The position numbers were made by a program, and so were the translations under genes. From Sarea resinae (Eukaryota), in NCBI GenBank assembly GCA_026026165.1, contig JAPEUD010000053.1:62001-126000 (forward strand): a stretch of DNA of 64,000 bases. The letters run 5' to 3'. Shown one piece after another: positions 24,695-62,327 of the stretch. Under the pieces are notes generated by a model, which saw only the letters and a list, made by a program, of their open reading frames with translations, ran no database searches and was not told the DNA's origin. Within the stretch, counting starts at the first letter, position 1. Every line of letters begins with the position of its first letter.

Positions 24695-26705
24695 ATGGCG
24701 TCGCCAACTCTTCTGAAGGGTACCGCCCACAAGCATCTATATATATGTAGTAGATGCGAGGCAAGGCAGATCCTCTCTACCACGCACCGCCGGCTCAATC
24801 TGCCTTCGAAAAGATGGATCTCTCAATCTTATCTAAGGAAGCAAGCAAAGGCAGAGGAAGCTTGGCAAGCCCAGGCCAAGGAGATCGAGTCAGGCAAAAA
24901 ACAGTCGATGCTGACGATTTTGGAGGAGAGGGGCTTTGTCAACTCTATTGCGGGGTATGTCTTTGTTGTTGTAAAATGCACGACTGGGCTGACACGATTG
25001 CTTCTAGGGAACGAGATGCGCTTGACCAGCTACTGACCAACAAACGAATTGGCGCCTATGTAGGTATTGATCCTACAGCTCCTTCATTACATGTCGGGCA
25101 TATGCTCCCATTCATGGCATTATTCTGGATGTATATCAATGGTTACCACACTGTATCACTCGTAAGCATGCTCGTTCACTCCTATGGAAAGGAAATTGCT
25201 GAATTCCATCAGCTCGGTGGTGCTACGGCAAAGGTCGGAGATCCGACCGGCCGAACGACTTCACGGACGCTACAACCAGCTGCGGTTCAGAAGGCAAATA
25301 TGGTCAGCATGCACTATCAGCTGAAGAAGCTCTGGCGCAATGTCGAAGATTATGCCCGAAAGTACGGCTATGTATATGAATGGGCATGGCATAGGGAGCT
25401 GGTAAACAACAACGCTTGGATGGGAAAATTAACTATGCTAGAATTCCTCAGGCTGCTTGGTACAGGCGTAAGGTTGGGAACAATGCTCGGGCGGGATACG
25501 TGAGTTCGTTTTGGCGAGGCTTGAAGCTTCTGAACTGGTGCTGATAGGAGTTTCAGGGTTCGCAATAAGATGGAAAAGGGCGACGGCATGTCCTTCGCCG
25601 AATTCTCATATCCTCTGATGCAAGCCTGGGACTGGTGGTACATGTACCAAACCAAAGGTGTTCAAATTCAGATTGGTGGCTCCGATCAATTCGGGAATAT
25701 AGTGGCCGGCATGGACGCCATTAAGTATATCTCCAAGAACCACCACAATCCGGACATCCGACAGGAAAAGGAAGACGAGCGAATGCTTCCATACGGATTT
25801 ACAGTTCCTCTCCTAACCACCTCATCTGGTGAGAAGTTTGGAAAAAGTGCAGGCAATGCCGTGTGGCTAGACAAAGACATGACCAGCATCTTTGACCTTT
25901 ACCAGGTGAGCGGTTGCTTCAAAGCGCTTGAAGGGTTAATCTTCTGACACGGGGTTCATGTTAGTTTTTTTTGCGCTCTAGTGATGCAGACGTTGGCCGC
26001 TATTTGAAGGTCTTAACCTTCATGCCACTCCCCAAGATCGAGCAAATTATGACCACTCATATGGAGGACCCTGCCAAACGGGTAGCACAGCACGCGCTGG
26101 CGCGCGACTTTGTGGAGCTTGTCCATGGTGAAGAAGCAGCCAAAGCGGCGGAATCGCAGCATCGAATGATCTTCCGTTCTAGTTCAGCGCCAGTAACCCC
26201 TCAGGCAGTTACTCCTGGGCCGACCGCATCCCCAGTCGGAGACATCAATCCCTCTCTCAACCGCCGCGCTCCTCAAACTACTCCCAATAACGCCCCTACC
26301 GCTAACCTGATCCTCCCCAAGTCTCTTATCGAGAACCAGTCTGTGGCACGAGTCCTTTACTCGGCAGGCCTAGTCTCCTCCCGCAGTGAAGGCCATCGTC
26401 TCGCGCAGAACCAAGGCGCCTACCTTGGCTCACGTTCCGAGGGCGGCGGTGCCATGGGTGACTCCCTCTCCTTTACTCCGGTCAAGCTTCGGGATCCCAA
26501 GAAGACGCAGGATTACGTGATGGAGGGAGGATTGCTGATCTTGCGGGTGGGGAAGTGGAAGGTCAAGATTGTGCAGGTGGTGAGCGACGAAGAGTTTGAG
26601 CGGCTCGGGCTCGATGCGCCGGGCTGGAAGGAGGATGAGAAGAGAGCGGCGAGGGAGGCAGAAGCCGCGGCAAAGGAAGAGAAGGTCACCAAGAAGAAGG
26701 CTTGA
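24695..26705 (+). CDS. MSY1: Mitochondrial tyrosyl-tRNA synthetase; 5 exons
   Basis: GAYVGIDPTAPSLHVGH (HIGH-like), GGATAKVGDPTGR, FAEFSYPLMQAWDW, QIGGSDQFGNI, EKFGKSAGNAVWL (KMSKS-like), S4-like tail LILRVGKW. Confidence 0.93.
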
Positions 26706-27982
26706 GGGCGGATGAGAAGGAGGTAGACGAGTTGTCAAGGAGAGCCATGTATTATAGTGTAAAAGTCCCCACCCAAAGAAGTCACTCGAGTATTACCCCT
26801 TTACGAAAGGCATCCATGGAGTCTGTGTCTCCCAAATCCAGGGCTCGAGCAGAAAGCTCATCACGGCAATCACCATGATGATGATGATGATGATGATGTA
26901 CTGCGTGCCTTGCGAGCGTACCTAGAAACGAAGTACTTCGTACCTGGGAGTTTTGACTCAATAATCGTTGAACGTCTCAGTGTTTGAGTGTTCTCCTCAC
27001 TCTATGGGCATGATTAGGTGGCCATTGTCAGGTCAAGCCCTAGCGACTCGTTCTTGGGTGAGACGTTGGACGAAGATGGGCCAAGGTCAGTGTGGTCACA
27101 CCAGATGAAAGGGCGGCCGAGGCGCCTCGGGGCTGATTGGCGGCCATGCCCCGTCTCGTCACACACATGGAGATGCAGCGCTGCAGTGACTTGCACTTGT
27201 CGCGGCGCCATCAGGCTCGTCCCGCTCGCGCCATTGGCCTCGGACCCTGTTGCGGGTCCTCGACCGTTTCCTTCCCCAGCTGCATCCCGTCCTGGATCTC
27301 ACGCTGCTCCCCTCGCCTCGTTGCATCCATCTTTGAAGGTATGATGTACTCGGAGCCATAGTAATACATGCCATGCACCTAAGAACAGAACAGCACTGAG
27401 CAGAGCAGACCACTCTCCGTCGATAGGCGCTTGATCGACCAAGTACACCGAGGGTTCGTGTACTCGTCTACTTCATGGCCTACCTTACCCCGTGCAAAGG
27501 CTTTGTACCCTCCCTCGGCGGGCAATCGCTGTGATGCAGCTGCTGCACGGGATCCTCTATCGGCTGCCAATGCGGGCGCCAACCTCCCCCTCCTCATTGG
27601 CCTCGCCCGCCGTCGATCTCACCGTGTGCGATCGAGTCGAGCAGTGAGAGCGCGGCCAGTCAGTGCCACTCGGCCTCTTGATGGCCCACCCTCCTCCCTT
27701 CTCTTAAGCTGTTGGTGTCCGCATCACGACTGTTGCTGTTTCTCGATTCTCCTGCTTCTCGCTCCATCGTTTTTGCTGTCTCTTGTTTTGCTCCTCCATC
27801 TTCTGCCTCCCAAGCAGTATTAGAGCTGGTTTCTGTCTCGTCTTGGACCGCATCATTGTGCGCGCAGATCTATTTCTCCTAGCTGCATTTCTTGCAACTG
27901 CAATTCCCATAACCGTGGCGCTGAGCGCAAAGGAGAACCCTTGATTCCATTTTCGCACTCGGAGGGCCCGTTCATCCCCAAG

Positions 27983-29210
27983 ATGTATTGCTTCGGTCGG
28001 CGGGTCTACATCGCCAAGAGCACGCGGATGCCGAAGACCTTTCTGGTCTTGCTGATCCTCGAGTTCCCCATCACCGTCGCCGCTCTCATTCTCTTCGGCA
28101 TCGCTTCCCCAAACCTCTACCGCACACGTCTCTGGCAAGATGGCGCAGACAACGGCTTCAACAGCAGTCCGAACGAGATTCTTTACGCCATGGCCAACTA
28201 CCGACCCATCACGGTGCCGGTGCCATGGAACCAATTGTAAATCCACCTGCTGCTCAACCCTTCCCATGCTATCCATGGAAAGGTGTACGAAGATAGCAAT
28301 ACTGACTCCAGTTCTCAATACCAGTACCACAACATACAACATGGTGCTTCCGGTAGTCAGCATGTTCGTCATGTTGACCAAGCCAGTGCTCTTCTTCTGC
28401 GGCGCCCTGCCGCCCATCCTCTCCTTCGTCGTCCATGCCGTCCTCATCGCCCTGTACGCCGTTGCACTCCGCAACCAAGCCGGCTCCGACATGAGCGATC
28501 CCGCGCACCCCCAACCCGGTGCGCCTTGGTATCTGACCAAATCGTGCAAAGTCGCTGCTCACCACACCAACATTCACTATTGCCAACAAGCAAAGGCAGG
28601 CTTCGCCGTCTGTGTCGTCATGATGTACGTTCCCACCTTCTCCCCACGCCTCCCTGCCATTATTCTTCTCTCATCCTGCCCCCACCCAGCCCGTGTCCTC
28701 GTCCCCCAACTCCCGGTAACTCTACTGACCGAAACCACCAGTGCCCTCTTCCTCGCCCAGCTGCTCATCGCCTTCTACTCCTTCTGGCCCAACAAGAACC
28801 AAAAGGCCACCTGGCTCCAAGACATCGAAGACGACGAGGAGATCAAGAACTACCAGCCCGACATCAAGAGCTACTCGCCCGACTCCGAGTCCAGCCTCAA
28901 GGGCCACTGGCCGCTCAACGACGTGCCCAAGTCGCCCATCGCCATGTCCACGTACGCCACCCACGGCACCGGCGGCCAGATCCGCCTCGGCGACGACCTC
29001 ACCAATAATAGTTATCCCAGCAGCGGCACCACCACCGCCCAGGAGCCCCGCAGCCCCAGCCTCTGGAAGCGCGGCTTGGCTCCCGTCACCCCGCGCACGG
29101 CCGCCTTTAATATCCTCGGCGGTGCCAGGGACCACGAGACGCCGGCCAAGAAGCACGGCTACAATCGCGAGGAGGAAGCCGGCTGGGGCGATCTGGGCGA
29201 GTTGCCTTGA
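27983..29210 (+). CDS. Hypothetical 4-TM (MARVEL-like topology) membrane protein; 3 exons (27983-28236, 28325-28624, 28742-29210)
   Basis: Four hydrophobic segments; LFGIASPNLYRTRLWQDGADNGFNSSP, NQAGSDMSDPAHPQPGAPWYLTKSC, YCQQAKAGFAV; splices in frame. Confidence 0.8.
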
Positions 29211-29239
29211 TTACTTCTATTCACGCTTCGATTCGGGTC

Positions 29240-29464
29240 GGACGTGTGTGTGTGTATGTGTGTGTGTGTGTGTGTGGCCGAAGCGATGATGCTTGCAAGA
29301 AATGACAGCATTCCAAGCGACTGGAATTCCTCTCGGGGCTGATGAATGAGTGGGGTTGGGTTAAATTAATGTACGGGGCTTCATGGGAACAAGGGGGACG
29401 GGAAATATCACGATCTACCCCTTATGACGGATCCTGTGTGTCTGAACTTGCGAGGCCAGAAAGC

Positions 29465-29504
<40 letters not shown>

Positions 29505-30490
29505 GATGGGAAGGAAGGGAAGGAAGGGAAGGAAGGCGTTTTTTCCTTTTTTTTTATTTTACAATGTTTGGTTGCCGTCTTCTATATCACTGTTTCTAAA
29601 TCGCGCTTTTTCGTGTTGGTTTTCCCCCCCAATATCCCCAAGATTTCAATCTTCAATCTCTCTATCCGTCCCTCCCCCTCTCCCTCTCTCCCTCTCCCGC
29701 CATATCTCCCTCTATATATCTCCCTTCTATTTCTCTCTTCGTCTGAATATCTGAACATCTGAACATCTGAATGTGTGAATGTCTGCATGTCTGCATGTCT
29801 GCATGTCTTACCCGGCTAGCCCCAGCGGCGCGCAGGCCGAAGAAGAAGAAAATGTCAAGAGATTGTTATGATTGATATGATTGAATGAATGCATGAATCC
29901 ATGACTTTGGTTTACAAAAACAGAACAGAAACAGAACAAACACAACTCATTGAGGATAGGGATTCCTTTTGGTCCGCGTGAGGTAGGGTGCGCGTCGCCG
30001 CTGCCCGCCTAGCCAGGTCGTCGTTGTCGTTGTTGTTGTTGTTGTTGTTGTTGTTGAGGAGAAGGAGGAGGAGGAGGAAGAGGAGGACGAGGGGTGTGGA
30101 CCCATCCATCCATCCACTCGGCCAGTCGGCCACTCAGTCAGCTAGTCAGCCAGTCAAAACTATGTCTGGTTCAACATTGTCTGGTTCAACATTGTCGGGT
30201 TTAAATTGTCTGGTTTAATGAGCGAGCGAGTGACATGGATGGATGGATGGATGGGGGCGTCGTGATGCTAGCTCGCTCGCTTGTCCTGCTGTGCTTGTTG
30301 CTTGTTCTGGTAGTGGTGGTCTTGAGGGGGAGTTGGGGGGGGGGGGAAGAGATGTTATTGATACTGATACTATGTCTAGCATATAATTTATATCGAGTCT
30401 ATCGTAGTCTATCGTAGTCTATCGTGGTCCTGCTAGTCGTCGCCTCGCTCGCTCACTCACTCACTAAGTCATACACTCACTCTCTCCCAC
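29240..30490. repeat. SSR island: (TG)n, (CAAG)n, (GGAAGGAAG)n, (TCTGAACA)n, (TGCATGTC)n, (GTT)n, (GAG)n, (GGAT)n, 15-mer duplication TGTCTGGTTCAACAT
   Basis: Read directly; between convergent genes. Confidence 0.85.
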
Positions 30491-30502
30491 CCTCCCTCTT
30501 TC

Positions 30503-33052
30503 TCACTCCCTCTCCCCCACCCCATCCCTCCGGCCCCCCTCTCCATCACCGACATCGCGATCCACAACCCACATCCCACTCTCCCACCCATAAGCCCGAG
30601 CAAGCCGTCTGCCAAACTGGCGCGCGACGCGGAACGCGAGCTTGCCGCGCGGATGCGGCTCGTGGAACTGGATGCTGCGCTCGACGGCCATGCCGCGCGG
30701 CGGCGCAAACTGCCACACGGACCCGTAGAGCTTCTCGGGCGAGAAGCCCACGCTGTGCATGGCGGCCAGGAAATCCGTCCAGGCGATCTCACCGGGCGGG
30801 TCGGTGAAGGTCGCGCTGGGGGTCGGGAAGAGGGTTGTTAGGACTTTGTAGGCGCGTTTTGGGACGTGGATTTGGGGTGGCGGGGCGGCGGGGAGGTGGC
30901 GCGGGTCGGTTGGCGTTGTCGTGGTGGTGGTGGTAGAGGGGAAGGGGGTGGAGGGCGTGCCGCGGGTTTTGACTTTCGTCGTCTTGGCTGGGCTTGGGAG
31001 GGTTGAGGGATCTTCTTTGCGGTCGAGGGAGAGTTGGGAGAAAGGCCTGTAGATGGGAGAGTCTTCGGCGTTTGTCTTCGGTTGCTTGGCCGTCGGCGGC
31101 GGCGGCGGCGGCGCGGTCCATTCCGGTGTCCGTTCTATCTGGCGGTCCGTGGTGAGGAGGTGACGGATGGCGTCTTGGAGGGTGCGTCCGGTTCGGGCCT
31201 TGTAGGTCTGATCGACCTTTTGCCAGAAGAGGTCGAGATTGGACTCGGCCTTGCGCATGGCCTCGGTCGTCTGCTGGGTGCGGCGTTTGTCGGACGGATA
31301 ATGGAAGCGGCCGTCGGAAGGCACGCCTAGCTTGAAGCACTGGCCGCCCCGGAGCTTGTTGACGAGGTTCGCCACCTCGGAGAGGTCCTGAGTATACTCG
31401 CTCTCCATCGCCTCTTGGTATTGCATGGCGTCATTCTCGAACCCGTTGGCCCACGGCTGGTACATGTCGATCTGGTGCAGCGCGCCCGCTATGACACCGA
31501 GGGAGCTGTAGACACGCGCGACCCACGAGGTGAGGCGGTCCTTTTGTCCCGGGACGGTCTGGATGGTTCGCTCGATCTCGTCCATGACGTTTGTAAGGCG
31601 CAACAAGGAGAGCTGTTTTTCGTCCCAGAGACACGTGAAGAGGAACAGCAAGAAGTCGTCCCCGATGCCCCCCTTTGTCTTTGTTCTTATGATTGTGGAG
31701 TCGGAATCTTGGGGTAAGTTCTCGAACTTTTGACGAAAGGGGCCAGATGCGACGAGGCCCTGTTTCAAAGAGAAAATTGGGCCTTTGGTTGATTCCTTGA
31801 GAAGGAAGCGCAGCTTCAAGATCGCCTTCAGATACTCTTCTGGAAGATTGTCTTTGGGAGAAATGACATCGGCGTATTTGATTTTGAGCGCTGCTAGCTT
31901 AGTGACTTGTTGGTAGACGAGATCCCAGAAGATAAAAGCTCCATATGCATCCGTTACCACGCTTCCCAGCACATATTCCCAGAACAAAGGCTTATTCAGA
32001 TTAGGATGGGTCTTTCCATGAGTATCCAATAACGTCTCTTGACGGTGTTCGGACCAATCCTTTACAAGGTCTCCAAAATAGCCAGGATCTTCTCGCAAGG
32101 CCCAAATCTGGTCTTCGGCGGCTGAACGCTGTGCAGAAATCAATGCGAGCAATCTATCAAAGTCAAGATGGGCGGGAACACGGTATGGAGCTTCTGCGTT
32201 GATGGCAGCCAGCGTGGGCCATTCTCTTGGGTCTCCGGTGATTGCTGGAGGCTCTGGTTGAGGCGTGAATTGTGGGTCTGTGAGAGAACCCGGGAGCAAA
32301 TCCTGGAGGATGTTCTCACAGCACTCAACAAGGAAACGCATGATCTCTTTCTGAATCTCCAATATCATCAGGGCTTCGCCCGGGTGAAATGCGAGCCCAT
32401 GCTCCGTTACCTGCTGGCTACAGGCTTCGGGATCGTCGTCCCAGGAAACAAGGCGTCCGTAAGTCTCGGGGCTATCCCCGGTGAGATAAATGGAATACTC
32501 ATTGAGAAACGGCGGGATCAGTGCCAGGGTAATGCGGCCCAAATGCGTAGCTTCAAAATCCGAATAAGCAAACATCTGCGGCAGATGACGACCACGAGCA
32601 TTTAAAAAGAGCAATAGAGATTTCCCGGGAGTCAGGTCTTCGAGATTGATATATGGCCACAGATAGGCATCCTTGAATTTGTTGATTTTTGGTTTGCTTC
32701 TCCCCTCCTTACGGAAAGCCACAAAATCGGGCCGGTGAGCGGCCGACATGTTCGGCCATGCCTGAAGCAGGATCTTCTTGCGCTGCTCTTTCGACTTCTT
32801 CATCCATCGCTTCCGGATTACGTCTTCGTGCTTCTCGAGGATTGCTTGCAGGGTAGTCCAGTTCGAGAAGATGTTCTCTGACCGATGCCGTGCTTCTTGC
32901 CGGGCCTTTCTTTCATTGGGAAAGGAGGTTGGCTTTGGCATGCCTTCGCCTATCATTGAGAAGAACGTGGTTGGGTTCTTATATGGGTCCGGGTCGTTGA
33001 GGCCTGGGTGCACGTCCCTCCTGTCCAAGCCGTAGGGGAAGATTGGATCCAT
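30503..33052 (-). CDS. Intronless ~849-aa fungal protein: large predicted helical region plus C-terminal HicA-like domain
   Basis: Uninterrupted ORF, first ATG at 33052; blocks RKRWMKK, WPYINLEDL..LLLFLNARGR, WALREDPGYF, FHYPSDKRRT, KVKTRG; C-terminus IAWTDFLAAMHSVGF..GSVWQF..IQFHEPHP..FGRRLARAYGW. Confidence 0.85.
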   Translation of the reverse strand: MDPIFPYGLDRRDVHPGLNDPDPYKNPTTFFSMIGEGMPKPTSFPNERKARQEARHRSENIFSNWTTLQAILEKHEDVIRKRWMKKSKEQRKKILLQAWPNMSAAHRPDFVAFRKEGRSKPKINKFKDAYLWPYINLEDLTPGKSLLLFLNARGRHLPQMFAYSDFEATHLGRITLALIPPFLNEYSIYLTGDSPETYGRLVSWDDDPEACSQQVTEHGLAFHPGEALMILEIQKEIMRFLVECCENILQDLLPGSLTDPQFTPQPEPPAITGDPREWPTLAAINAEAPYRVPAHLDFDRLLALISAQRSAAEDQIWALREDPGYFGDLVKDWSEHRQETLLDTHGKTHPNLNKPLFWEYVLGSVVTDAYGAFIFWDLVYQQVTKLAALKIKYADVISPKDNLPEEYLKAILKLRFLLKESTKGPIFSLKQGLVASGPFRQKFENLPQDSDSTIIRTKTKGGIGDDFLLFLFTCLWDEKQLSLLRLTNVMDEIERTIQTVPGQKDRLTSWVARVYSSLGVIAGALHQIDMYQPWANGFENDAMQYQEAMESEYTQDLSEVANLVNKLRGGQCFKLGVPSDGRFHYPSDKRRTQQTTEAMRKAESNLDLFWQKVDQTYKARTGRTLQDAIRHLLTTDRQIERTPEWTAPPPPPPTAKQPKTNAEDSPIYRPFSQLSLDRKEDPSTLPSPAKTTKVKTRGTPSTPFPSTTTTTTTPTDPRHLPAAPPPQIHVPKRAYKVLTTLFPTPSATFTDPPGEIAWTDFLAAMHSVGFSPEKLYGSVWQFAPPRGMAVERSIQFHEPHPRGKLAFRVARQFGRRLARAYGWESGMWVVDRDVGDGEGGRRDGVGERE

Positions 33053-33600: not shown

Positions 33601-35651
33601 ATGGCAACATCCACCGTCACCACTACAAAGCTACCATGGCAAGAGATTGCTCTCACTGTCCAGAAGCGCCGTGACGAGAGCATTGCTCATGTGAAGCCTC
33701 CGGTGCCCGATGTGCCTGCCGACCTGCCCCGAAATGTCACCGGCATCCCGAAAAAGCTCTTGACAGAGCGGGAGGTCGAGATTACGGAGACTGCTCCGGA
33801 GCAACTGATCACGTCTCTTGCAGCTGGCAAACTCACGGCCACCGAGGTCACTAATGCATTCCTACGACGGGCCGGACTGGCGCAGAAGCTGGTAGCCCAT
33901 ATTCTTCCTTCCCTAAATACCACTGTGTTTGCTGATCGGCCTTGCAGGTCAACTGCGTCACAGACCTCTTGCCGGAGCGGTCACTGGCCCGAGCAAACTA
34001 TCTCGATGAGTACTATGCGAAGAATAAGAAGCCAATTGGGCCCCTGCATGGGATCCCGATCAGCGTGAAAGAGTACGTCGGCATGAAAGGCCTAGACACG
34101 AATGCTGGCTTTGTCAGCTGGGTTGGCAAGACTCAAGACGATGATGCAAACATCCTGAAAATCCTCTGGGATGCTGGTGCTGTCTTTCATGCGCGGACCA
34201 CCCAGCCCCAGACGCTGGTGAGTGATGAATCGTCCTCTTTGCCTTCTGTGAATGCTCAAGCTTATTCTCCCGTGGTGTTCAGATGCACTTGGAGAGCTCT
34301 ACCAATCTGTATGGCGCGACAGTCAATCCGTATAATACAACTCTCACGGCAGGAGGAAGCTCAGGCGGCGAAGGTGCGCTCATTGGCATTCGAGGTAGCT
34401 GTCTGGGCATCGGGACGGACATAGGAGGCAGTACGTATCCTTTCGATGGCAGAAGAGCAATGGCTACAGATTTTAAAACAAATTCCAGGCATCCGTAGTC
34501 CCGCCGCCAACAACGGTTTATACGGTCTCCGACCTACAAGTTACCGTCTTCCTCTACGCGGCTGTGTGAGCCCTATGCCAGGTTCCGAGCACATTGTCGC
34601 CGTCATCGGGCCCCTTAGCACCACTCTCGAAGGCGTAAAGGTGTTCATGAAGACCATCATTGATACCAAGCCATGGTTGATAGAGCCGAGCTTGCTACCC
34701 TTTGAGTGGAAGCCTCCACCGCCAATCAAGAAGCTGAAGGTTGCCATTTTGTGGAGTGATGGCGTGGTCAAGCCTCATCCACCTATCATCCGGGCTCTCA
34801 AAGACGTGGCGGAGAAGCTGAAATCAGCGGGCGTAGAAGTGGTCGATTGGAAACCTTACAAACACGATCTCGCATGGGAAATCATCGTTCGTCCTCCCCA
34901 TTTGCCCTTTTCTAATTATTGTCCCGATCTTTCCTCTCCCTTTTCACGACTAATATCGTACGCCGAAAACACAGGCCAGTCTCTACTTCTCGGACGGCGG
35001 TGCCCTCGAAGCTTCTGCTATAGATGCATCTTCGGAACCCTGGCGCCCGCTATCAACCTTCATATTGAAAGAAAACCCCCACGTGTCCACACACACGATC
35101 CACACACTCTGGCAACAAACCTCGCAACGCGAGAAATATCGCGCCGACTATGCCGCACTGTGGAACTCGACAGCAACGGGCACCGACATCGAGGGTCAAC
35201 CCACTGGCATGGTCGACGTGATCCTCTGCCCTACGGGCCCTGGGGCCGCGCCTCCGCTGGACTGTGCGCGTTATTGGGGCTACACCAGCCAGTGGAATCT
35301 GCTCGATTATCCGTCGCTCGTGTTTCCGCATTCTCAGGTCGATCCCACGGTTGATGTCAAGGAGGATGGATACAAGCCGCTGAACGAGCAGGATGAGTAC
35401 AATTACAACCTTTGTGAGTTTTTCGGACATCTCCTTCTTTTCACGATTCTGGATCTGGAGAAGAAAATAGGATCTGGTTGTCGCTGTCTTCTTTGTAGCT
35501 TTACTGATCCGTCTCCCTATGTATAGATGAGCCGGAACTCTACCGTGATGCTCCCGTGTCCTTGCAGCTCGTCGCCCGACGCTACGAGGATGAGAAGGTG
35601 ATTGCGGCTGCCGAGTATATCCTCAGCAAAACCGGCCCGCCGAAGGTGTGA
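33601..35651 (+). CDS. Amidase-signature enzyme (acetamidase/general amidase-like); 6 exons
   Basis: [89 protein letters not shown]. Confidence 0.92.
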
Positions 35652-36916: not shown

Positions 36917-37974
36917 CTATCTCAATCCCGCCAGCCGCCTCTCCTGCACCTCGCTAAGCGCGCGGCTACCGCTGAGGAACGCCACGGACCCCACGACCGC
37001 GGCCGCGGGCAGCGTCTGGAAGAGGTTCCACGTCGTGTAGTAGAGGAAGAAGATGCCCTCGAGCGCGACGACGGAGCCGAAGAAGAGAAGGTGCGGAATC
37101 GGGGCGTTTTGGAGGGCCGTAGGGAGGTGCGAGAGGTTGGCGCCTAGTGTCACCCACTGTTTTCTCCGTGTCAGTGGTGGTTGATGGTGCTCGTTGGACA
37201 TGAAGGGGTAGGCTTTGGTCTGAGGCAATTTTTGGACATGAGGAAAGGGGGAATGGGAACTTACCACGCCCAATAATAACGGCACAGCTGCTATGACGGC
37301 GGCCGTGAAGAGGAGCGTGAGGATCTTGGGAGGGTTGGTCGGGTCCGATTTGAAGATGTGGTGGATCTCCGGTTGCGGACCATAGCGCAGCGCTTTCTCC
37401 GGCTGTGCAATAGGATTCGCCGAGTCGAGGACCGGGGTGATGTCGAAGACGTGCGAGGTGTAGGGCTTGGAGGTGCCGAAGGAGGCAATGGTCAACGTTG
37501 CGCTCAGGGGATGTGCGGTTGTTAGGAATTGGGCGGGAAGGTCTTTTTGGGTGATTTCGACTTTGCCCTTGCCGCTGTCTTTGACGCTCAAAGCATACGA
37601 GGTTTCGAGACCTGTGGAGGGGTCGCGCAGTTGGAGGAAGGCCTGGTGAGGTCGTTTGGGGGCTTTGTCCTCGCGGGCCGTGAGGATGATTTTGAGCGTG
37701 TCGGATGCTCCTAGTGTGATGGGTGATGAGAGGGGAGAGGCGGGTGATAATCTAAACCATCCGTGTTAGCTGCCTTGGTCAATGTAGTAGAGCAATCGAG
37801 AGTCTTGAAAAAAAGCAAAACAATTGAGGCATACTTGTCTTTGAAGCCTCCCCCGATTCCAGCGCCCTTGGGTTGCACAGAGATGGTCGCGTCGTCGAAA
37901 CCCCACGATGCTCCCCAGGCGGTGGACAGGCCCGCAAGGAGCAACGGCAGGTGGGCCAGGCGTAGGAATCGCAT
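36917..37974 (-). CDS. SWP1: Oligosaccharyltransferase subunit delta (ribophorin II); 3 exons
   Basis: Signal peptide MRFLRLAHLPLLLAGLSTAWG; KRPHQAFL; LRYGPQPEIHHIFKSDPTNPPK; three C-terminal TMs ending FLSGSRALSEVQERRLAGLR. Confidence 0.9.
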
Positions 37975-38782: not shown

Positions 38783-40985
38783 ATGAACCGATTGCAGACT
38801 CGATCGTCCTCCCTCTCTAACCCGATCGCCGACATGAACACCTCGCATTTTCAAGACGTCGGTCAAGGATTCCCCGCCTCCGAGGTTGTCTTTCCGGCAG
38901 CAGAAGGGCATCGGCCAAAACGGATTAAGATCGAGGAGCCTGCGGGAGAACTGAATTCGTTGGAGAATATTCCGGAACCATCAGTCAGTGAAAATGGGCT
39001 ACCGACCATGACCGGCATCACTACAACATCAGAAGAAGCAGAGTACAATGGAGAGAATCAAGGGTTCGATATTGATGCGCTGGCAGCGTTGGCGGCACAA
39101 TCAGCTATGGCAGACCTGAATGGCAATATGGCAATGGCGGAACCAAGTCAGGCCAGCGATTATACGAGCCAAGATCAAATGAATGGCACGGGAACCAATG
39201 GGGCAAGGAACGTTCAGGGCCAAGCATCAGCTGAAATAGACTTTTCCAGCGCACCATCTGATCCCACCGAGCTCGCTCTATGGGTTGCCAAACAAATCAG
39301 CAATATCCGAAACGAGGACAGGGACAGTTATGATTCGGAAGATCTTGTGGCTCGACGGAGGCTGATGGCGCAAGGGCCTGCTATATACAATCATCGACTG
39401 GATGAGGACGACGATCCCGCTAAGGCTGCCGAGAGAGAGAGAATCCGTGAGGAGAATCGAGAAAGAAAGAAGCGTTGGAGACAAAGCAATGCTGAAAGAA
39501 GTAAGTATCCATTGAGCCTCTTGGCATCGTAAGCAACCTCTTACAATAGCCTCAGACAAGGACAACGACCTCCGCTGTCGCATAAACAAACGCGCCAAGA
39601 AACTCTACGGCATTGGCCAGTCAGCAGAGAAGTCGGCCTGGATGGAGTCAGAATTCAATAAGCGGCGAACGAAGCGGGAGAATAAGGAGCAGGTTCGAAC
39701 ATATGGCGGCGATGTTTTCCCTGGCTTTGCATTTGCTCCAGGATTTGGCAGTACGCTCTTCCCAGCTCCCGGAGTTGGACCCAATGGAGAGACGAATGCG
39801 GCTGGTTTGCTCCTCGCAAATGCGCTGCTTGGTGTTGGAAACAGTGGCGGCGGACCCAATGCCGAAGCAGCAAATGCCCTCAAAGCAGCGCTAGAAAAAG
39901 GAGCTGTTGATCCGAGGCCATTCACTGAGGCGTTGCGAACAATGGCTTCGAATCCGGAAATCATGAGTGGTATAAATGCCGTCCTTGGTGTTGGCTACGA
40001 TGAAGACGGAGACGGTAACAGTGGAGACGAAAACATGGATACCGTCATCCAATCGACCGAGCAGCATAATGGGGAAGGGGAAGTGCAGGTCCCCGAGAAT
40101 ACGAATGATGATTCCAATGAGATCATCAAGGCTCTCAATGCAGCGACGGCTATCTTGAACGAAATGAACGAATCAAATACAGATGGCGGCTTTGCCGAGG
40201 GCCTATCTAACGCTATTAATGGATTTAATGCAGTCACTGAATCGATGGATCTGCGCCAAGATGGCGCCTCGGCCATCAAGGCTAACGACCACGGCCTCGA
40301 TCAGTCCCAGATAGATGCACTCCTGGCGTTGGCCAACGGAGGCTCTTTGAACGGAGATGGAGAAGATAATGTCAAGACGGAGATGCCGCCAACAAGTGAA
40401 CTGCAGCCGGATCGCACCACTCCTCAGCCTGACGACGACATCACAGCAACTCTGCAACGGATTGTACAGCAGCTGATGGCCGAGAGAGAAGGACAAGGTG
40501 GACCAGCAGATCAGAACGAACATGCGGGGCCCGAGGACAGCGACTTCGCGACCAGACACGGAGAGACTAACTTGAGTCCAATGCCCGACCCTACTACTTC
40601 CATCAATACAAAAGATCCCGCCACGACATTATCTTCTCTTCTTCATGGCGCAGGCATGTCGATCAATACAGTGATACCTGCGGCTCAAAGTCATGCCACT
40701 TCTCAGCTTTACAGTCGCCTCTCTACTCGAGCGCGCTCCTCCACACCCTCTGGAGGGATCAATCCTGCCCATGCTAGCGCTTATGGCAGCACGGCGCAGA
40801 TGAATCAGAAGTTGCTCTCTAGACCCAACGGTAATCGTCAGAAGGTTCAGAGCGCAAGTCCGAAGCTCAATGGAAGGGGTGGCTCTCCAGACCCCAGACG
40901 TCTAGAAGAGGAACGTAAGGTCAAAAGCTTTGGGTTTCCACCAATGCCGGGAAAGCGCTTCTTGATGAAGAAGGATAAGAATTGA
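38783..40985 (+). CDS. DUF3020-domain putative nuclear protein; 2 exons (38783-39500, 39556-40985); start may be 38833
   Basis: ERERIREENRERKKRWRQSNAER|NKDNDLRCRINKRAKKLYG..KSAWMESEFNKRRTKR; C-terminal KVKSFGFPPMPG. Confidence 0.82.
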
Positions 40986-60371: not shown

Positions 60372-62327
60372 TCACTTCTCTGAGCCCCTGTCCTTCGCAG
60401 AACCTGCATCAGCACCAACGCCCTCACCCCTGAAAAAGCCAGCCACCAAGAACGCAAGTTCCAGCGCCTGTTTCTCGTTGAGTCTGGGATCGCAGTAGCT
60501 GGTATAGTTGCTCTGCAGATCGCTGTCCGTGAGCCCCTCGCTGCCGCCGATACACTCGGTCACAGCATCGCCGGTCAGCTCAAGGTGTACGCCGCCGAGG
60601 AACGAGCCGTGTGCTGCGTGGATCGCCAGCGACTGGGAGACCTCTGAGAGGATCGAGGTGAAGTGCCGTGTTTTGATTCCTGAGGGTGTGGTAATGGTGT
60701 TGCTGTTGTGCGAGCGAGGGTATTAGCGAGAAAGGTTAAGGGGTTGGTCGAGGTGAAGATGGATGGGGAGAGTAAGGAATAGGGAAAATGGGTGAGGAGG
60801 GATAGAAATAGAGGAGGGACAAACCCATGCATGGGATCACACTGCCAAACGACAACGTGGCCGCTCTTCCTGACAGCATCGATATGCGCGCCCAATAATC
60901 CCTCGATCTTCTTCTCACCGTATCGCGTGATCAGCGTCACTTTTCCGATCTCCTTCCGTGGGTCGACGATGTCCAGCAGCCGCACCAGTTCATCCGTGGC
61001 CATGCTCGGCCCGACTTTGATACCGATGGGGTTTTCGAGACCGCGGAAATACTCCACGTGTGCGCCATCTAGCTGGCGCGTGCGGTCGCCGATCCAGAGG
61101 AAGTGCGCTGAGGTGTTGTACCAGGCTTTTCCATCGTCGTGGGTGGGCTTCGTGGTATTGACGAGGCCTGCTGGTGCAGAGTCATCGGAAGAACGCACGA
61201 AGGAAGGGCGACGTAGGCGACGTGTGAGAGTCTGCTCATACTCGAGAAGCAGACCTTCATGACTAGTATACAAGTCGACGGTCTCGAGGTTCCCCGCGGT
61301 GTCAGCGCCAATGGTGCGCATGAAGCGCAAGGAGTCGGTGATGGAGGAGATAATTCGCTGGTACTGGGCTTTGATCTCTGCGGACTGAACGTGGCCGAGG
61401 CCCCAGTCAAGTGGGGAGTGCAGGTCTGCGATTCCAGACGACAGTTGTGCACGGAGATAATTGAGAGTGGTGGCAGAGTGGAAGTAGGCGCTTACGAGAC
61501 GGGAGGGGTCGGGCGTGCGTTCGGTTGGCTCATAGCCGTTAATGTTGTCGCCCCTGAAGGAGGGAATTTCTTGGCCGTTGACCATTTCGGTAGGGCTGGA
61601 ACGAGGTCTAATCGCAAGTAAACATGGGAATGTCTTTCAAAGGATTTTGCTGCTTACTTGGCAAATTGGCCAGCCATGCGGGCTATTCGGACGACGGGCT
61701 TGTTGGCTCCTAAGTGTTGTAGACAGTTTAGCCAAATCGATTCGCGATGAATGTCAGGGGGTGCCTGGCTAACCCCAGATTAATACCAGACTCATTTGGA
61801 GGAGCAGCTTAATCTTCGAGTCTATAGCACTCTCTTCGCAGTAATCGAAGAGCTCCGCGCAGTCACCTTTGACATTGTCAGATAGACATCCTACGCTCGG
61901 CATATAATAAGCTCACCCCCTTGCAGAAGGAACGTTTTTCCTTGAGCTACATCCTTTAAGCTTCTCTTCAGCTTGGAGATCTACGGTCACTGTTAGACGA
62001 TACCAACGCCATGGAGAGTCCAACGTACCTCTGTCGGCGTAACAAGAGGAGGCAGCCGTTCCAGCTTCGCGAGAGCTTTCTCTACTGCTCCACGGTCTTC
62101 GTATGTCACATCTTGCTTAATAGGTTTCGTGGTCCAAGCTGTGTGTCGTGTTGATTAGTGAAACTGTGTCCATATCTAGGACCGAAGGTCAAGGAAAGGA
62201 GTTGCTCACATGATGGAGACCAATCCTCTGATGTGCTTTGGTGAATGATACCATTGGACGTCCGTAGGGCGGCCGCAATCTCCCCGCTTTTGCTAAGTTG
62301 TGGCGGCGAGCTTGCCAATCCAGCCAT
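60372..62327 (-). CDS. Class II DAHP synthase (phospho-2-dehydro-3-deoxyheptonate aldolase); ~7 exons
   Basis: WSPSSWTTKPIKQDVTY..LPPLV, FLLQGGDCAELF, VRIARMAGQFAKPRS, SFRGDNING, YTSHEGLLLEYEQ, SAHFLWIGDRTRQLDGAHVEY, CDPMHGNT, GVHLELTG, YCDPRLN. Confidence 0.94.

Follow-up and report, generated by a model that had tools for sequence, protein, structure and literature searches.

Does a fungal protein carry a HicA-type RNA interferase domain, a module that is regarded as a toxin of prokaryotes and phages? The question was raised by a gene of Sarea resinae that lies in a stretch of 64,000 nucleotides (positions 62,001 to 126,000 of the forward strand of contig JAPEUD010000053.1, assembly GCA_026026165.1; the whole stretch is called the window, and its first letter is position 1). 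A reading of this DNA made from the sequence alone had claimed that the last part of an 849-amino-acid (aa) open reading frame (ORF) resembled bacterial HicA toxins. The observation on the ORF and its C-terminal segment was confirmed: the quoted segment corresponded in translation to residues 755-823 (69 residues, window 30584-30790), and the coordinates given for it (30580-30790) were at most 4 nucleotides from the translated position. We found that the C-terminal domain is very probably a true but divergent HicA homologue, invisible to Pfam searches that compare a hidden Markov model (HMM) with a sequence. Its nearest known relatives, as judged from the alignments, appear to be a clade of long bacterial HicA proteins lacking the histidine of the G-S-H turn. 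The best explanation overall is probably that of a HicA-derived, RNA-directed module in a large fungal protein family. The gene and the parts of its product were delimited as follows, with model confidence given as the predicted local distance difference test (pLDDT).

30503..33052, minus strand: whole gene, a single ATG-to-stop ORF of 849 aa in the standard code, with the stop codon at 30503-30505.
31097..32980, minus strand: N-terminal body, residues 25-652, nearly all alpha-helical in a confident model, for which neither a Pfam family nor a convincing PDB fold match emerged.
30872..31096, minus strand: linker, residues 653-727, rich in Pro, Thr, Ser and Lys and disordered (residues 655-721 with pLDDT below 50).
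30563..30871, minus strand: HicA-like domain, residues 728-830, placed by models, fold matches and profile-profile comparison.
30716-30724, minus strand: G777-S778-V779, the beta1-beta2 turn that corresponds to G-S-H in canonical HicA, placed by alignment to GSH and GSR.
30650-30667, minus strand: F796-H797-E798-P799-H800-P801 at the end of beta3, matching FHRPHP of the long bacterial HicA and PHP of canonical HicA.
30590..30634, minus strand: alpha2, residues 807-821, a strongly basic helix followed by a Y-G-W motif (model and conservation).
30506..30562, minus strand: C-terminal tail of 19 residues, rich in Gly, Asp and Arg (alignment columns 920-937; residues 834-849 with pLDDT below 50).

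Considering that the claim concerned a small domain, its fold and its profile were both compared with those of known HicA proteins. An AlphaFold2 model of the last 115 residues, built with 34 sequences, reached a mean pLDDT of 73.9 (82-92 in the core) and displayed an alpha-beta-beta-beta-alpha arrangement after a short N-terminal helix. In the models, a short strand and a helix (732-741) preceded alpha1 (758-767), beta1 (771-776), beta2 (779-783), beta3 (794-797), alpha2 (807-821) and a short final strand. When the domain was compared by Foldseek with 350,542 PDB chains, HicA entries occupied ranks 1-6, none of them at E<=0.001. The top row was 6g26_E (E 0.073, probability 0.97, TM 0.63 by target), followed by 6g26_F, 5yrz_B, 4c26, 4p78_C and 1whz, the last of which has the PDB title 'hypothetical protein' and is presumably a member of the HicA family. 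HicA toxins were also the top three matches of VIA-align among 48,161 chains. [quoted passage not shown] Taken alone, these fold scores are weak; their weight lies in the convergence of two methods on one small family. In the ESM Atlas, an 85-aa bacterial HicA cluster superposed on residues 730-826, with 85 positions aligned and a TM of 0.76 by the cluster row against 0.64 by query, and a bacterial HicA-HicB fusion cluster was among the matches too. The same search returned a sister ascomycete cluster with PF07927 on 26% of its 88 members (Pfam 38.1 label). The resemblance is therefore not wholly unseen, since databases already tag some sister proteins as HicA_toxin. Thus the fold expected by the sequence-only reading was recovered, with HicA toxins as the best structural matches.

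The evidence that carries most of the argument came from profile-profile comparison. A bacterial HicA set was collected by running the Pfam model over 201 proteobacterial genomes, 74 of which had a match. Among the weaker Pfam matches we found a distinct 'long' HicA subfamily of about 84 aa, represented by 12 proteobacterial proteins (loci L139-L148, L150 and L151, of a PF07927-positive type encoded upstream of HicB, PF05534). These proteins have an extra N-terminal helix, a Trp that opens alpha1, and GSR (once GSS) in place of GSH; HRPHP is invariant in the 12, and FHRPHP occurs in 10 of them. By these sequence criteria the long HicA loci are ordinary hicAB cassettes, because all eight of the proteins scanned passed the Pfam HicA_toxin cut-off (37.7-44.6 bits against 27) and the gene overlapping the end of the long hicA was HicB (PF05534) in seven of seven scanned (67-81 bits). 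No solved structure of the long subfamily was detectable by sequence.

When 303 fungal domains were compared with the 12 long HicA proteins by hhalign, a probability of 93.4% was obtained (P 2.6e-7, score 43.1, 65 columns). The aligned columns started in the extra N-terminal helix and took in the W, GS and FH-PHP positions, so that all four features of the long proteins (N-terminal helix, Trp, GS without His, and FH-x-PHP) aligned in order in the fungal domain. None of 150 column shuffles reached this score (mean 11.9, standard deviation 3.0, maximum 22.5), and the reversed alignment scored 13.9. Of eight HicA groups the long subfamily scored best by a wide margin, with P values of 0.0014 and 0.0018 for those that followed. 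Comparison of the fungal domains with all 71 HicA proteins together gave a probability of 90.8% (P 1.2e-6), and the long subfamily itself was linked to canonical HicA at 86%. In a search of all six-frame pieces of the window with the HMM of the long HicA proteins, the 849-aa ORF came out as the best match, though with E 0.092. The 34 canonical proteins of the GSH type aligned with the fungal domain in the expected register (GF on GW, GS on GS and PHP on PHP), and here too no shuffle out of 150 scored as high. A HicA subfamily with the pattern W..GS..F..FHxPHP, which had been cited in the sequence-only reading, thus turned out to be real. Its HicA-like interpretation was supported as a whole: the fold, the profile match, the loss of the GSH histidine and the lack of HicB all held.

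The domain belongs to a widespread family of fungal proteins. A search with the full-length protein gave 543 matches at E<=0.001, of which the 120 listed had 42-54% identity and 69-98% coverage, mostly 93-98% of the query. The named sources among these listed matches were all fungi, almost all of them Pezizomycotina, and included Leotiomycetes, Eurotiomycetes, Dothideomycetes, Sordariomycetes, Lecanoromycetes and Geoglossomycetes. One full-length member, P0083, is labelled Amanita rubescens, a basidiomycete, which could reflect contamination, transfer or a wider range of the family. Two named species each had two family members among the matches listed. When 30 members were aligned, conservation was highest in the block formed by the C-terminal domain. 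The domain profile matched 1,921 cluster representatives (clusters at 50% identity) at E<=0.001, and 1,075 of these at E<=1e-10. The domain lay at the C-terminal end in all of the best 150 of the 1,921 matches, and it ended at most 10 aa from the C-terminus in 289 of 304 relatives (longer proteins or fragments). All relatives with more than 150 aa upstream of the domain matched the profiles of the body (0 exceptions in 320), in a set that is biased to close relatives. Conservation was nearly complete at W758 (300 of 302), G777 (300 of 303), S778 (297 of 303) and W780 (at least 297 of 302-303), and the conservation of the C-terminal segment, as read from the aligned sequences, is far beyond chance. 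Scans with the fungal motifs yielded 16 pattern matches in prokaryote genome contigs and 16 in viral contigs, and no relatives in either.

Two departures from the common pattern were observed in passing. In P0186 (1,751 aa) the HicA-like domain occurs twice, at mid-length (residues 755-870) and at the end (1627-1751); probably this entry represents two tandem family genes or a merged gene model, and it hints at local duplication of the family. In four of the short forms (P0178, P0180, P0182 and P0183) the motif reads FHEPK, and both the loop that follows it and the one between beta2 and beta3 are lengthened; by sequence these may form a separate paralogous clade.

As for the remainder of the protein, the full-length model had a mean pLDDT of 77.9 and a predicted template modelling score (pTM) of 0.77. 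The body (residues 25-652) was provisionally an all-helical region of about 620 aa without a recognised fold: neither fold search gave a convincing match, a result that is itself provisional, since the body was never folded by itself. Its family showed no similarity to HicB when the two were compared at full length by hhalign (probability 1%, P 0.053). The model also bore out the Pro/Thr linker that had been described ahead of the domain, with Pro/Thr/Ser-rich residues 655-721 at low confidence, and both the length and the sequence of the linker varied among homologues (alignment columns of about 720-810 were poorly conserved). A complex prediction between the body (25-652) and the domain (722-835) scored 0.02; it was run without controls and carries no weight either way. 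A separate observation was made in 3 of 161 family members, which matched Pfam Imm71 weakly and in colinear fashion (E 9.4e-4 to 0.04, none attaining the cut-off); Imm71 is an immunity protein that belongs to polymorphic toxin systems. The matches were located as follows.

About 31220-31510: Imm71 matches at residues 31-126 of P0273, 150-226 of P0194 and 21-90 of P0266, corresponding to about residues 515-610 of the window protein, in the helical region before the linker.

The remaining 158 of the 161 members had no Imm71 signal, and the lead was dropped because none of 401 genomes passed the cut-off when bacterial Imm71 proteins were gathered for a profile comparison.

If the domain is a HicA descendant, where would its active site be? 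According to one review (PMC11594946), mutagenesis shows that the toxins of Yersinia, Burkholderia, Streptococcus and E. coli depend on the G-S-H histidine for their toxicity or RNase activity, and this histidine is masked by HicB; the catalytic residues are named there as BpsHicA His24, YpHicA3 His28, EcHicA His23 and StpHicA His36. The long bacterial clade carries Arg at this column. The sequence-only reading had pointed out the fungal GSV in place of GSH and had left the histidines of HEPH as candidates, and both were found where it had placed them, the latter inside FHEPHP. This motif is near-invariant in the fungal family (H797 in 300, E798 in 295, P799 in 303 and H800 in 300 of 303), and its H800-P801 pair aligns with PHP of canonical and long HicA just after beta3. 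In alpha2, R811, the position of R812, R815, R816 and R819 are nearly invariant. If beta2 and beta3 pair as a regular antiparallel hairpin, V779 would face E798 and lie diagonal to H797; owing to this register (beta2 779-783, beta3 794-797), the FH-x-PHP site would stand beside the place of the lost catalytic His. We regard FHEPHP as the candidate functional site. Since antitoxins persist in the bacterial clade although it lacks the canonical His, its active site, like that of the fungal family, may plausibly have been relocated.

Based on these results, we propose that a long-type hicA gene would have entered a fungal ancestor by one ancient transfer, which is the most economical history, and would then have been fused to, or captured by, a large helical protein. 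Binding of RNA may fall to the exposed sheet and the basic alpha2 helix, and targeting or control to the helical body, which would act through the flexible linker. An RNA-directed function of the domain appears reasonably likely. Any nuclease activity would rest on the shared, near-invariant FH-x-PHP site, because neither this domain nor the closest bacterial clade, which keeps its antitoxins, has the canonical His. Actual cleavage of RNA through this site is a tentative proposal, to which we give slightly less than even weight, and control in cis by the helical body would be an unlikely addition to it. A fuller scenario, in which a His-less HicA of the long clade was captured early in filamentous ascomycetes and became an RNase whose catalytic His had moved to FH-x-PHP, held in cis by a 620-aa helical sensor or inhibitor until a trigger such as a mycovirus, non-self contact or stress, is speculative and improbable in its entirety.

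Several results weigh against the proposed HicA descent and function. A match to Pfam HicA_toxin, by which the sequence-only reading had suggested that its claim be checked, failed to appear: HMMER gave none at E<=10 for the protein or its last 115 aa, so the cut-off of 27 bits was not reached, and neither Pfam nor NCBIfam offered any other family at E<=10 for either query. HicA_toxin touched only 1 of 34 short forms, below threshold (E 0.036), and 1 of 161 longer relatives (P0303, residues 746-806, profile positions 1-54 of 58, E 0.027, 15 bits against 27). Sequence searches of the PDB with phmmer and with the profile returned only HapC at E 1.3. Conversely, when the 201 proteobacterial genomes were searched with the fungal profile, only weak matches emerged (27, with E 0.05-1), and none stood at a listed HicA place (38 places were unlisted). 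The link to canonical HicA of the GSH type is weaker than its register would suggest (hhalign probability only 17%, P 0.0014). At the column of the GSH histidine the fungal family has V in 256, A in 23, I in 22 and G in 1, and His in 0 of 303. Lys replaces H800 in a small fungal subgroup (4 of 34 short forms), and the presumed closeness of H797 and E798 to position 779 is deduced from strand limits alone.

The failure of HMM-to-sequence searches in both directions at database scale, together with fold scores in the range that the tools call common for small domains, would be in keeping with a chance or convergent resemblance, that is, an unrelated small alpha/beta fold sharing a few HicA motifs. 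We consider this very improbable, as it would leave unexplained a profile-profile probability of 93.4% with a score that none of 150 shuffles reached, the first rank given to HicA by two independent aligners, a motif order that matches from end to end of the 84-aa bacterial protein, even in a helix that the Pfam model does not cover, and the marking of part of a sister fungal cluster as HicA_toxin by Pfam 38.1. If descent from HicA is accepted, the domain could still have been domesticated as a non-catalytic module, binding RNA or protein in the manner of type B dsRBDs, within a conserved cellular protein that has no toxin-like role. The replacement of the GSH histidine by Val, Ala or Ile speaks for such a module, as do the very basic alpha2, the lack of any antitoxin-like sequence, be it elsewhere in the window or within the N-terminal body, the broad conservation and uniform architecture (no exception in 320 relatives with more than 150 aa upstream), and the housekeeping neighbours of the gene (a tRNA synthetase and ribophorin II), which make it resemble a cellular gene more than a mobile conflict element. 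However, the closest bacterial clade also lacks the GSH histidine and yet is accompanied by HicB (7 of 7), and therefore loss of that His need not mean loss of toxicity. Moreover, H797, E798, P799 and H800 are nearly invariant (at least 295 of 303), a pattern seen more typically in active sites or sites that bind a ligand than in a binding surface. On balance we regard a module without nuclease activity as rather unlikely.

The function that the sequence-only reading had suggested was that of a single-chain toxin-antitoxin or immune effector, in which the helical body holds a HicA-like RNase inactive in cis until a viral, non-self or stress trigger arrives, as in fused bacterial HicA proteins or CapRel. 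Bacterial precedents with a C-terminal HicA on a mainly helical N-terminal region have been described (classes 13 and 14) and compared with CapRel, as far as the accessible text of PMC10865869 goes. A flexible linker of about 70 aa joins body and domain; the family is large and diversified (1,921 clusters at 50% identity, and two species with two members each among the matches listed); and the weak Imm71 matches of three relatives immediately precede the linker, with a best E of 9.4e-4 that falls short of the cut-off. Nevertheless, the body shows no similarity to HicB, the Imm71 signal is missing in 158 of 161 members and never attains the cut-off, and full-length identities of 42-54% across fungal classes are not obviously those of a fast-evolving conflict gene. 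We therefore hold such an effector to be distinctly doubtful, and prefer the more general explanation of a HicA-derived, RNA-directed module.

The surroundings of the gene were also investigated. The gene is supported as intronless by its sequence, because no break interrupts the ORF, whose alignment with its homologues runs from one end to the other (query coverage 69-98%). Its surroundings had been described before as mostly spliced, and the flanking amidase and Tyr-tRNA synthetase genes are both split over frames. The other features recognised in this part of the window were the following.

24754-26702, plus strand: Tyr-tRNA synthetase in two frame pieces (Pfam scan).
27383-29286: ORF pieces without a Pfam match.
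33936-35523, plus strand: amidase in three frame pieces (Pfam scan), confirming the neighbour that had been named from the sequence.
36920-37765, minus strand: ribophorin II C-terminal domain.
39516-40982, plus strand: SPP41/DUF3020 protein.

The window holds one copy of the HicA-like domain. The earlier remark that no antitoxin gene lies nearby proved correct for the window, in which nothing HicB-like was found (best E 1.2 for the HicB HMM over its six frames). Thus, of the traits of type II HicAB systems, an adjacent or fused HicB was not found, and instead of a small stand-alone toxin of about 55-100 aa the domain forms residues 728-830 of an 849-aa protein. Downstream of the gene, a short ORF (29424-29762, plus strand) contains KQAS and KEG repeats in tandem and, after them, a stretch rich in Phe, Leu and Ser, and looks like microsatellite-type sequence rather than a gene. 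Over the 3' third of the gene (window 30500-31500), which encodes the linker and the HicA-like domain, the guanine-plus-cytosine content was 0.62-0.67, against about 0.50-0.53 elsewhere in the gene, and at least part of this rise is due to Pro, Thr and Ala codons. The C-terminal tail of 19 residues was present only in the window protein and missing from the other 29 aligned homologues; a shifted stop codon and a species-specific extension could both account for it.

How does this compare with what has been reported? In their accessible parts, the surveys of HicA (PMC10865869, PMC11594946 and PMC2701414) deal with prokaryotes only, and the word stem 'fung' does not occur in PMC10865869. No paper on a fungal HicA-like domain was found by full-text searches, whose scope left out about 1.7 million PMC articles as well as subscription journals and supplements. 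Apparent hits for 'HicA' in the fungal literature were rejected, as three concerned the assembler HiCanu and one paper lacked the whole word; in PMC10967133, judged from its listing alone, 'HicA' appears to be hydroxyisocaproic acid. A bacterial RNA-cutting module has thus seemingly been adopted by a whole group of fungi, and the HicA-like domain would give a very large, uncharacterised protein family of filamentous fungi its first functional handle, namely RNA. The bacterial clade that lacks the 'essential' His and still has antitoxins suggests that the active site can be arranged in a second way, one that it would have in common with the fungal proteins. If the domain is a regulated RNase, the toxin of a toxin-antitoxin system would have been adopted by eukaryotes; if it is controlled within a single chain as an effector, the protein would be a eukaryotic counterpart of the fused bacterial toxin-antitoxin defence proteins; and if it is only an RNA-binding module, it would still be a clear case of bacterial domain capture.

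Among known systems, the most general likeness is that to dsRBDs, since HicA has been described as dsRBD-like (PMC2701414, accessible text). The fungal domain has the alpha-beta-beta-beta-alpha topology in common with them, but no dsRBD was among the top fold rows, where HicA was. Canonical HicA toxins (B. pseudomallei 6G26 and 4C26, Y. pestis HicA3 4P78, S. pneumoniae 5YRZ and E. coli 6HPB) share this dsRBD-like fold, and their G-S turn and the His-Pro after beta3 align with the fungal domain. In contrast, they carry the GSH histidine where the fungal domain has Val, they lack the extra N-terminal helix, and the similarity is marginal (the 17% and P 0.0014 given above). As regards architecture, the accessible text of a prokaryotic survey (Gerdes, mBio 2024; PMC10865869) distinguishes 14 contexts of HicA, of which classes 11-14 are fused proteins. 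Class 13 combines a helical N-terminal region with a C-terminal HicA in 340-440 aa in total, and class 14 an SMC-like coiled coil with a C-terminal HicA; the question of how fused HicA toxins are controlled is raised there, with CapRel cited as a sensor-antitoxin parallel. As these classes are described in that text, both they and the fungal protein are single polypeptides with a C-terminal HicA on a mainly alpha-helical protein, and the question of control in cis is common to both. The two classes, compared here by description only, are prokaryotic, with N-terminal parts derived from HicB or SMC-like, whereas the fungal body has no HicB similarity and seems unrelated, or at any rate not recognisably related, to such parts. 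Three long open frames over HicA matches in the sampled genomes, considered as class-13-like fusions, were rejected as read-through of non-coding or antisense sequence.

The closest counterpart is the long bacterial HicA, with which the fungal domain is colinear over its whole length. Both have an N-terminal helix with basic residues and an (L/I)F..P motif, an invariant Trp that opens alpha1, a G-S turn without His, ER before beta3, FH-x-PHP after it, and then a helix ending in Gly. The long bacterial HicA proteins stand alone with an overlapping hicB (7 of 7), whereas the fungal domain is the C-terminus of a protein of about 850 aa without HicB; and in the fungal domain Val stands where the bacterial proteins have Arg after GS, and Glu where they have Arg in the His motif, while its beta2-beta3 loop is longer and its alpha2 far more basic.

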